13,817 nt of DNA, taken from the IMG/VR virus record IMGVR_UViG_2645727640_000022. One strand, written 5' to 3'. The stretch comes from a virus (taxonomy: Duplodnaviria; Heunggongvirae; Uroviricota; Caudoviricetes). Positions 8,890 through 9,154 of this stretch are shown here, piece after piece (positions within the stretch are counted from its first letter, which is position 1; the number at the start of each line of letters is the position of its first letter). A program made the translations under genes and the position numbers. The notes beneath the pieces are model-generated. The model was not told the DNA's origin and ran no database searches. It saw only the letters and a program-made list of their open reading frames with translations.

Positions 8890-9154
8890 GGTGACGGCTA
8901 GGTGACGCGTAATTACATATCCGTCACCTGCTGCAAAGCGCGCCATATAAAGCCTGAAGATGTTTTAGGTGACAGGTGACGGTTGATTTTAGTTCTATAT
9001 ATATATAAGCGATCGTATAATACCTAAAATACACACTCTCGCGTATATAGTTTTAAATTCTGCCGTCACCTGTCACCTTTAGCACATTCCCCATTGTTTT
9101 ATATATACTTTTTAAGGTGACGCTTAAGCGTTTTGCCGTCACCTAGCCGTCACC
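8890..9154. repeat. Mirror-symmetric array of ten GGTGAC(G/A) heptamers around an AT-rich core; candidate iteron-type replication origin or protein-binding array
   Basis: Plus-orientation copies at 8890, 8901, 8968, 8975, 9116; reverse-orientation copies at 8922, 9064, 9071, 9137, 9148. Each pair is equidistant from a dyad axis near 9022. Core 8991-9060 is AT-rich with TATATATATATA and a GATC. Confidence 0.7.

Follow-up and report, generated by a model that had tools for sequence, protein, structure and literature searches.

Two mirrored five-iteron arms around an A+T-rich core: a probable replication origin in a lambdoid prophage of Escherichia coli

Introduction

What is the function of a mirror-symmetric array of ten short repeats housed in the 384-bp gap between a replication gene (rep) and a gene for a 76-amino-acid (aa) protein in the virus record IMGVR_UViG_2645727640_000022? 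The window, i.e., the whole 13,817-nucleotide stretch analyzed, is a lambdoid prophage of Escherichia coli and shows 3 differences in 2.9 kb from a prophage of O55:H7 strain DEC5E. A preliminary description of this DNA noted ten GGTGAC(G/A) heptamers in a strict dyad and proposed an iteron origin of replication. Comparative analysis favors the same reading: the array is very probably the replication origin of the phage, a Rep-specific iteron origin with two five-iteron arms around an A+T-rich unwinding core. The evidence comprises the repeat geometry, its conservation, concerted change of the repeats, their co-variation and co-inheritance with the wing of a winged helix in Rep, fold prediction, and the exclusion of other binders. 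Position, architecture, and precedent support origin function. Beyond this, we infer physical binding by Rep, melting of the core, one hexamer per arm, and bidirectional replication. Full-text searches found no paper describing the array origin or phage vB_EcoM-606R2 (606R2), in whose record the array also occurs.

Architecture of the repeat array

The heptamer GGTGACR occurs 14 times in the window, compared with 3.04 ± 1.67 expected, and none of 200 shuffled sequences reached 14. Ten of these copies fall in 8890-9154, 265 bp in which ~0.06 would be expected by chance. Left-arm heptamers start at 8890 (+), 8901 (+), 8922 (-), 8968 (+), and 8975 (+), and right-arm heptamers start at 9064 (-), 9071 (-), 9116 (+), 9137 (-), and 9148 (-). 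The start and end of mirrored partners sum to 18044 in three pairs and to 18045 in two. The 5+5 dyad was recovered exactly as first described, in positions and sums; in addition, repeat 3 of each arm points the opposite way from its four neighbors. The repeat unit is better represented by the 9-mer AGGTGACRG, with which the array spans 8889-9155; all six exact matches to it in the window and 4 of 11 one-mismatch matches lie inside the array. Reading of the window and an inverted-repeat search also reproduced two longer blocks reported previously: the 18-bp GGTGACGGCTAGGTGACG (8890-8907) is the perfect reverse complement of 9137-9154, and the 16-bp AGGTGACAGGTGACGG (8967-8982) is that of 9063-9078.

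Spacers between the 9-mers measure 2, 12, 36/37, and 0 nucleotides (nt) and are mirrored on the two arms. Compared with the reverse complement of the opposite arm, spacer sequences match at 5/12 and 21/37 positions, as in random sequence (0.46 ± 0.13 and 0.53 ± 0.06, respectively). Because the complementarity of the arm spacers is at the chance level, binding-site geometry is the conserved property, in agreement with the earlier argument that spacer lengths are held while spacer sequences differ. Four sites per arm lie at 0, 11, 33, and 77 bp, by our arithmetic multiples of 11 bp, and the fifth lies 7 bp further on. Iterons 1/2 and 4/5 are direct repeats, phased by 11 and 7 bp, and on the rep-sense strand the Rep-proximal arm reads -> 11 bp -> 22 bp <- 44 bp -> 7 bp ->.

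Such symmetry could in principle be the product of a recent inverted duplication or of a functionless chance cluster, explanations that have nothing in their favor beyond the symmetry itself and that we consider practically untenable. The arm spacers are unrelated in sequence and conserved in length, ten copies stand where almost none would be expected, and the plan persists in relatives whose Rep proteins are 28-36% identical. Preservation of the geometry across genomes and in distant relatives, together with the spacer comparison, refutes both. The repeat structure is real, strongly non-random, and selected for site identity and geometry.

The core between the arms is 80 bp long and 74% A+T, compared with 50% for the window, and contains the (TA)6 and GATC noted previously; the GATC (9011-9014) is kept only in some E. 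coli types. In the proximal arm, the 36-nt spacer (9079-9114) is 75% A+T. The corresponding 37-nt spacer of the distal arm (8930-8966) is 54% A+T and has a GCGCGCC motif that is kept in relatives and in the origin of EcCICFT073, a phage-inducible chromosomal island (PICI) of E. coli. Two 16-bp palindromes, TTGCAAATATTTGCAA and TTGCAAAATTTCGCAA, are roughly mirrored outside the arms (sum 18048). The former is kept in relatives as TTG[CA]A-N6-8-[GT]CAAAT, whichever gene comes next, and may not belong to the origin. The latter sits within the coding sequence of the intact Rep tail.

Position and conservation in related prophages

The preliminary description placed the array directly downstream of the primase/replication gene, and comparison with relatives confirms and tightens this placement. 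In the window, rep has a run of seven T residues (9228-9234) where DEC5E and 606R2 have six, and this +1 frameshift costs the window Rep a tail of 22 residues (NNDFSNEELREIYKSCEILQSGL) with cross-genus conservation. The intact Rep of relatives is 753 aa long, its TAA stop codon is equivalent to 9158-9160, and the first 9-mer lies 2 nt beyond this natural stop.

The array region is found in 45 of 5,426 complete E. coli genomes (~0.8%) and in four phage records (vB_EcoM-606R2 and relatives). A search of related prophages with the same replication gene, in which absence would count against an origin, found the array in all 21 loci, from >10 genera. In every case it lies immediately 3' of rep, with the 11-, 22-, 44-, and 7-bp spacings, a core of 77-81 bp, and the mirror image. 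Rep is followed by a gap of 277-446 bp in 17 loci from other enterobacterial genera and Avibacterium, where the gene order is cI-cro-rep-gap-(small gene)-Q. Across 11 genomes of four genera (Escherichia, Izhakiella, Erwinia, and Serratia), iteron offsets of 0, 11, 33, 77, 84, ~173, ~180, ~225, ~247, and ~258 are kept, with spacers of 2, 12, 36-38, and 0 nt and a core of 77-81 bp that is 65-81% A+T. Alignment shows that the inverted core boxes CTATATACGCGAGA and TATATAGA(A/C)C are also kept in these four genera.

Divergent E. coli relatives, with gaps 74-79% identical, have all ten repeats in the same places. E. coli arrays have been switched as a whole, to GGTGGC in O121, STEC435, and C11 and to GGTAAC in B771, and each lineage has all ten copies alike, the word being GGTGAC, GGTGGC, GGTAAC, GGTGTC, or GGTAGC. 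More distant relatives have TGACACAG or GGTTACAA. The same plan (an outer convergent set, ~36 bp, an inner tandem pair, an A+T-rich core, and the mirror image) is found in Xenorhabdus, Arsenophonus, Limnobaculum, and Avibacterium, at Rep identities of 59-36% (including 59%, 46%, and 36%), and also in Salmonella, Klebsiella, and three metagenomic contigs. A search for plasmids with this Rep gave no close relative, only distant ones at 28% identity. The 8.9-kb circular Proteus record pW47-1 encodes a 28%-identical Rep and has the same plan with GGTTACAA repeats. It carries a tape-measure gene, the record may be an assembly product, and it is taken here as evidence of conserved architecture only, not of an autonomous replicon.

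Copy number can apparently expand at the edges of the array while the inner plan stays fixed. The Arsenophonus array (locus L015, 4340-4762) has 14 copies and one metagenomic contig (L022, 3585-4005) has 12, the extra copies lie outside the standard 5+5 set, and those of Arsenophonus arise partly through a duplicated ~59-bp unit. In Erwinia tracheiphila (locus L009, 2501-4742), the rep frame is broken, with 139 aa to the stop, and the array is intact except for two one-base-degenerate copies; this locus appears to be a decaying prophage that retains its origin.

Neither the window (13.8 kb) nor the 606R2 record (42.7 kb) yielded a second iteron cluster, and all exact 9-mers lie in the array. 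Outside its array, the 606R2 record has 24 one-mismatch matches to AGGTGACRG, compared with 12.8 ± 3.3 expected for the whole record. These are dispersed, mostly on the coding strand, and the excess is probably an effect of codon usage (GGT GAC) rather than additional sites.

Co-variation of the Rep wing with the iterons

Rep contains PrimPol and DUF5906 domains; the latter corresponds to the AAA+ helicase core found in both vaccinia D5 and the NrS-1 primase-helicase (PMC9611036). A sequence search of the PDB with full-length Rep matched only the helicase domain of the NrS-1 primase-helicase, the nearest solved structure (E = 4e-8), and the Rep C-terminus had no match in the same search. Rep matched no NCBIfam family, a domain search detected no Toprim domain in it, and no O or P homologues were found in the window.

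Six E. coli Reps are 97-99.5% identical over ~750 residues, with variation concentrated past residue 700, and all eight columns diagnostic of iteron type lie at residues 713-726. In E. coli, EPVR-VKIDGFVYRIW is associated with GGTGAC, EAVK-LKVDGMTVRMW with GGTGGC, and QPTDLVKIDGMGYRFW with GGTAAC. The Reps of Izhakiella and Serratia are just 68% identical overall to those of E. coli, yet the pairings recur: related wings accompany GGTGAC in Izhakiella and GGTAAC in Serratia. GGTAGC, the fifth iteron type, pairs with yet another wing. Blind prediction of the iteron from the wing sequence was right in two of three cases (GGTGGC for P0008 and GGTAAC for P0021).

An AlphaFold2 model of the last 151 Rep residues, built on a 30-sequence alignment (mean predicted local distance difference test score of 81.6), has the order helix-strand-helix-helix-strand-strand of a canonical winged helix, followed by a terminal helix. 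Because its predicted strands lie at residues 714-718 and 721-727, the type-diagnostic residues are assigned to the wing, and all eight fall in the wing or immediately before it.

Wing and iterons also appear to be inherited together. The window is ~100% identical to O121 and B771 over 8545-8845 and 9345-10200 and 56-80% identical over 8895-9345, which holds the iterons and the wing codons. On this pattern of identity, wing codons and iterons seem to constitute one exchangeable cassette of ~450 bp. We infer, with strong support from these comparisons, that the predicted C-terminal winged helix of Rep specifies iteron binding. The earlier claims of an iteron origin and of its service by the adjacent replication protein thus hold up comparatively, as the layout is kept, the repeats change in concert, the wing co-varies, and a cassette is shared.

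Other candidate binders

The repeats might instead be bound by a different protein (CI, Cro, Q, the 76-aa protein, or some factor of the host), perhaps with a role in partition or packaging. The 76-aa protein, as a zinc-ribbon protein, had been named in the preliminary description as a possible partner, and regulatory sites are frequent in the position that the array occupies, at the border of early and late genes. However, identical proteins are found beside different arrays: CI (WP_000567468.1) and Cro (WP_000016208.1) beside GGTGAC (DEC5E) and GGTAAC (B771), the 76-aa protein (WP_000868571.1) beside GGTGAC (DEC5E) and GGTGGC (O121), and Q (WP_001244506.1) beside GGTGAC (DEC5E) and GGTGGC (C11). 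Conversely, a 96-aa gene replaces the 76-aa gene in 606R2, where the array is unchanged. The 76-aa protein is thereby excluded as the specificity partner. A host protein cannot be the specific reader, since three iteron types coexist within E. coli. Partition genes are absent, and the distance to the terminase genes is 3 kb. A binder other than Rep is accordingly very improbable. Viewing of the alignment by eye gave no conserved candidate DnaA box or integration host factor (IHF) site, although no proper scan for these was made.

The 76-aa protein matches no Pfam or PHROG family, and its resemblance to zinc ribbons is faint (E = 0.02-0.05 for the YnfU and YacG models). Its gene alternates at this position with unrelated genes of 89-139 aa in relatives.

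Proposed mechanism and alternatives

Rep would operate as a single polypeptide that joins a PrimPol primase, a D5/NrS-1-type (superfamily 3 [SF3]-like) hexameric helicase, and a C-terminal winged helix that binds the 9-mers AGGTNNCAG. A conserved recognition helix would read the invariant flanks of AGGTNNCAG, and the beta-hairpin wing would read the variable central dinucleotide. With four sites on one face of the helix (0, 11, 33, and 77 bp) and the fifth 7 bp on, each arm would nucleate one Rep oligomer, and the two oligomers would face each other in opposite orientation. Melting of the 80-bp core would follow; needing no host loader, the oligomers would load themselves as helicases and diverge, with priming by their own PrimPol domains. 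Transcription from pR across the array could aid opening, as at lambda ori.

Several observations weigh against an origin read by the Rep wing in this way. Foldseek matches of the C-terminal model to winged helices are individually non-significant (best E = 0.03). The third blind prediction failed: P0009, with a PVRVK...CTNRFW wing, has GGTGTC rather than GGTGAC, its beta-2 strand being that of the GGTGAC type and its beta-3 strand different. Very different wings and recognition helices (Xenorhabdus, P0035, and Avibacterium) all occur with GGTGGC. A simple wing-to-iteron code was rejected on these two grounds, leaving co-variation only. The Rep family is known from sequence, and only four phage records carry Rep, annotated as a hypothetical protein. 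The Rep of the window is frameshifted, and the prophage may therefore be replication-defective, or the seventh T may be an artifact of sequencing. The stoichiometry of one hexamer per arm and its polarity are drawn from analogy with other systems. Finally, a 286-nt strand covering the array folds, as single-stranded DNA, into one long hairpin of -55.6 kcal/mol, compared with -28.1 ± 3.7 kcal/mol for shuffled sequences (z = -7.4).

This fold suggests an alternative in which the repeats are the stems of a structured nucleic acid that is itself the functional element, whether a cruciform, a hairpin of single-stranded DNA, or an RNA within the pR transcript. Each iteron pairs with its mirror partner in the fold, and lineage changes (GGTGAC/GTCACC to GGTGGC/GCCACC, etc.) keep complementarity. 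Proteins of the pRN1 type, with PrimPol, SF3, and winged-helix domains, are reported to need a stem-loop, and a stem-loop of ~100 nt has been proposed 3' of orf904 in pRN1 and in Bordetella phage BIP-1 (PMC4234260). However, structure requires complementarity only within each stem, yet all five stems share one word and switch together. Outside the iterons, the arms are 38-57% complementary, compared with 53 ± 6% for random sequence, and the phased direct repeats 1/2 and 4/5 and the co-variation of the iteron word with a protein wing also argue against stems as the selected feature. The array has no terminator-like site. An Rfam scan of 8500-9500 gave only sub-threshold matches to microRNA precursors, which were caused by the inverted repeat and rejected. 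A structured element is thus very unlikely as the primary explanation, although extrusion of such a structure could contribute to opening of the origin.

A role mainly in transcriptional control is about equally unlikely; here an operator or roadblock would serve in rep autoregulation or in the timing of pR read-through to the small gene and Q, and replication would start elsewhere. Promoter and terminator scans found no terminator in the array and neither a minus-strand sigma-70-like promoter nor a terminator between the array and Q. The only promoter-like site (TTGCAA N16 TATATT) is on the plus strand at 9170-9197, directed toward the rep 3' end and overlapping the right palindrome. Since no promoter or terminator intervenes, pR transcription must pass the array to reach Q, and the array thus lies on the only path from pR to Q. 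Iteron-binding plasmid initiators commonly double as repressors, which also fits a regulatory role. By contrast, the 606R2 record offers no alternative iteron cluster from which replication might start, and a roadblock would have no evident use for the conserved A+T-rich core of 77-81 bp and its inverted TATATA boxes. A secondary regulatory role of the array is possible. The balance of evidence remains with a Rep-specific iteron origin.

Comparison with known origins

The strict 5+5 dyad had been regarded as an unfamiliar layout, but iteron sets on both sides of an A+T-rich center have precedent in the origins of Staphylococcus aureus pathogenicity islands (SaPIs) and of E. coli PICIs. SaPI origins have 6 to 12 iterons immediately 3' of rep, half on each side of an A+T-rich center, with at least two per side in opposite directions (PMC9371898); the iterons are penta- or hexanucleotides. 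SaPI Rep loads itself as a hexameric helicase, its C-terminal winged helix provides island-specific origin recognition, and two hexamers are thought to load, one per side (PMC9371898). E. coli PICIs "always" have two iteron sets around an A+T-rich region, and the pri-ori fragment of EcCICFT073 replicates autonomously in E. coli, with both parts required (Fillol-Salom et al. 2018, PMC6092414).

The phage locus shares several of these traits. The array is immediately 3' of its initiator gene (2 nt past the natural stop and in all 21 related loci), opposed sets of five iterons surround an A+T-rich region, and a specificity-setting C-terminal winged helix is indicated by the predicted fold and the wing co-variation. 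Rep is nevertheless a DUF5906 protein nearest to NrS-1, in the D5/SF3-like lineage, whereas SaPI Reps belong to the pre-sensor-II-insert AAA+ clade, usually have the primase as a separate protein, and operate in a Gram-positive host. The array system would work like a SaPI origin but stands outside the SaPI Rep protein family.

The EcCICFT073 origin was located in CFT073, where it occupies the gap directly 3' of the gene for its initiator, a DUF5906 (D5-type) helicase. Its RGGTAGAnAG iterons have spacings of 9, 46, 22, and 11 bp, then 31 bp, then 11, 22, 46, and 9 bp, a strict 5+5 dyad in which all five mirror sums are 48242, with one additional degenerate iteron. Arm spacings of 11, 22, 46, and 9 bp resemble the 11, 22, 44, and 7 bp of the phage array, the iteron resembles AGGTNNCAG, one spacer has TGGCGCGnnTTTCAG in common with the distal spacer of the phage, and alignments of the arms score z = 2.3-5.4 over shuffled sequences. 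The order of the arms is opposite: pair-triplet, 31 bp, triplet-pair in EcCICFT073 and triplet-pair, 90 bp, pair-triplet in the phage. Pri-Rep of EcCICFT073 consists of D5_N, DUF5906, and Pox_D5 and lacks the PrimPol domain of the phage Rep. BLASTP detected no similarity between these two proteins (best E = 5), and both match Pfam DUF5906. EcCICFT073 is a satellite, whereas the phage array belongs to a complete temperate phage.

The array origin is an uncharacterized addition to an established type, iteron origins 3' of a self-loading helicase gene, and represents no new principle. We advance a wider proposal only speculatively and regard it as rather doubtful. The five-iteron arm (-> 11 -> 22 <- 44 -> 7 ->) would be a conserved platform on which one D5-type hexamer loads, common to temperate phages and PICIs; the inverted arm order of the two element classes would give the paired helicases opposite relative orientations, and the wing would read the central dinucleotide of AGGTNNCAG. 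Natural wing-plus-iteron cassettes would then amount to at least five mutually orthogonal replicons in a single host, perhaps driven by competition between co-resident prophages and satellites.

Satellite phage P4 had been suggested as a parallel, and here the resemblance is partial. P4 alpha unites primase, SF3 helicase, and a C-terminal winged-helix origin-binding domain in one polypeptide (PMC2777425). Short iterons and a multidomain primase-helicase-winged-helix initiator are shared. The P4 primase is of the DnaG/Toprim type, whereas that of Rep is PrimPol (PF09250). P4 also requires a second cis site, crr, several kilobases distant, and its ori iteron is TGTTCACC; the phage iteron word is unrelated, and neither the window nor the 606R2 record has a distant second cluster. 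P4 is therefore a looser analogue.

The pRN1 protein ORF904 and BIP-1 likewise combine PrimPol, SF3 helicase, and winged helix, with an essential cis element of dyad character directly 3' of the gene (PMC4234260, PMC2777425). The phage Rep has the same architecture, its winged helix being predicted. For pRN1, the authors reported a stem-loop of ~100 nt without iterons and could detect no binding that was sequence specific (PMC4234260). The phage array differs in its discrete, phased iterons with unrelated spacers; complementarity is limited to the iterons, and all stems have one word, unlike a conserved stem-loop of free sequence.

The locus shares with lambda the cI-cro-replication-Q context and iterons matched to the DNA-binding domain of the initiator. 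In lambda, ori is located within gene O, where four direct iterons are bordered on one side by an A+T-rich region, the host DnaB is recruited by O via P, and related lambdoid and Shiga toxin (Stx) phages have different O/iteron specificity types. The phage array, in contrast, is intergenic and dyad-symmetric, and Rep carries its own helicase and primase. The layout is unlike that of lambda ori, as first stated, and iteron-initiator matching is the only structural feature shared.

In simian virus 40 (SV40) and papillomaviruses, inverted short repeats direct assembly of two hexamers of large T antigen or E1 on a dyad-symmetric origin. Their sites are central and their melting regions flanking, whereas the A+T-rich region of the phage array is central, and their origin-binding-domain fold is N-terminal to the helicase rather than a C-terminal winged helix. 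Helicase domains of D5 and NrS-1 have been compared with those of E1 and large T antigen (PMC9611036).

Genomic context

All early genes of the window are on the minus strand (Table 1). Many enterobacterial prophage proteins have the N-terminal PrimPol half of Rep (<=97% identity over 45% of the query) and end in a VapE-type (PF05272) half, not in DUF5906 and the winged helix. This domain-swapped module presumably uses another origin.

Table 1. Features of the array and neighboring genes in the window
Feature	Position	Strand	Details
Q	8142-8564	-	
76-aa gene	8610-8840	-	
Palindrome TTGCAAATATTTGCAA	8863-8878	.	11 nt outside the distal arm
Rep-distal arm	8889-8982	+	9-mers 8889-8897, 8900-8908, 8921-8929 (inverted), 8967-8975, 8974-8982; mirrors the proximal arm
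Central core, proposed unwinding region	8983-9062	.	80 bp, 74% A+T
Inverted core box GTTCTATATA	8992-9001		Conserved
Inverted core box CTCTCGCGTATATAG	9036-9050		Conserved
Rep-proximal arm	9063-9155	-	9-mers 9147-9155, 9136-9144, 9115-9123, 9070-9078, 9063-9071
Out-of-frame remnant of the Rep C-terminal tail (NNDFSNEELREIYKSCEILQSGL*)	9158-9227	-	Contains palindrome TTGCAAAATTTCGCAA (9170-9185)
rep as read in the window	9225-11420	-	731 aa; PrimPol (PF09250) and DUF5906 (D5/NrS-1-type) helicase domain
Predicted winged-helix domain of Rep	9240-9443	-	Residues 660-727
Predicted beta-hairpin wing	9240-9281	-	Residues 714-727; strands 714-718 and 721-727
Predicted recognition helix	9294-9329	-	Residues 698-709
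cro	11424-11624	-	
cI	11766-12440	+	

The ends of the 606R2 record hold host genes (tRNA deaminase and phosphatase), which marks it as a prophage region identified by prediction and not as a packaged genome. Its leftward early region, outside the equivalent of the window, has annotated DNA polymerase and DNA helicase genes; these features of the record were noted at 36746-38809 and 41349-42743. In E. coli O121 (locus L002, 2696-3393), IS1A is inserted beside Q, and the annotated Q is 321 nt long compared with 423 nt. The GGTGGC-type prophage of E. coli STEC435 (locus L004, 1674-2909) encodes Shiga toxin Stx2b directly after Q. From this gene content, the Rep/ori module would drive at least one Stx-converting phage without lambda O/P.

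Significance

The analysis assigns a probable origin and a predicted origin-recognition determinant to an uncharacterized replication module that is found in ~0.8% of complete E. coli genomes, including an Stx2b-converting prophage, and in Salmonella, Klebsiella, Citrobacter, Serratia, Xenorhabdus, and others. Of most interest are the cassettes of wing and iterons, which comprise at least five words in one architecture, and the arm module that satellites have in inverted arrangement. Near-identical Reps that differ only in 8-15 wing residues and have different iteron words provide a clean natural system for studying wing specificity, and the wing/iteron pairs could be used to build orthogonal Rep/ori pairs. 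The arm module held in common with the validated EcCICFT073 origin would tie the phage to satellite replicons and raises the question of whether helper and satellite cross-activate, or avoid cross-activating, each other's origins.

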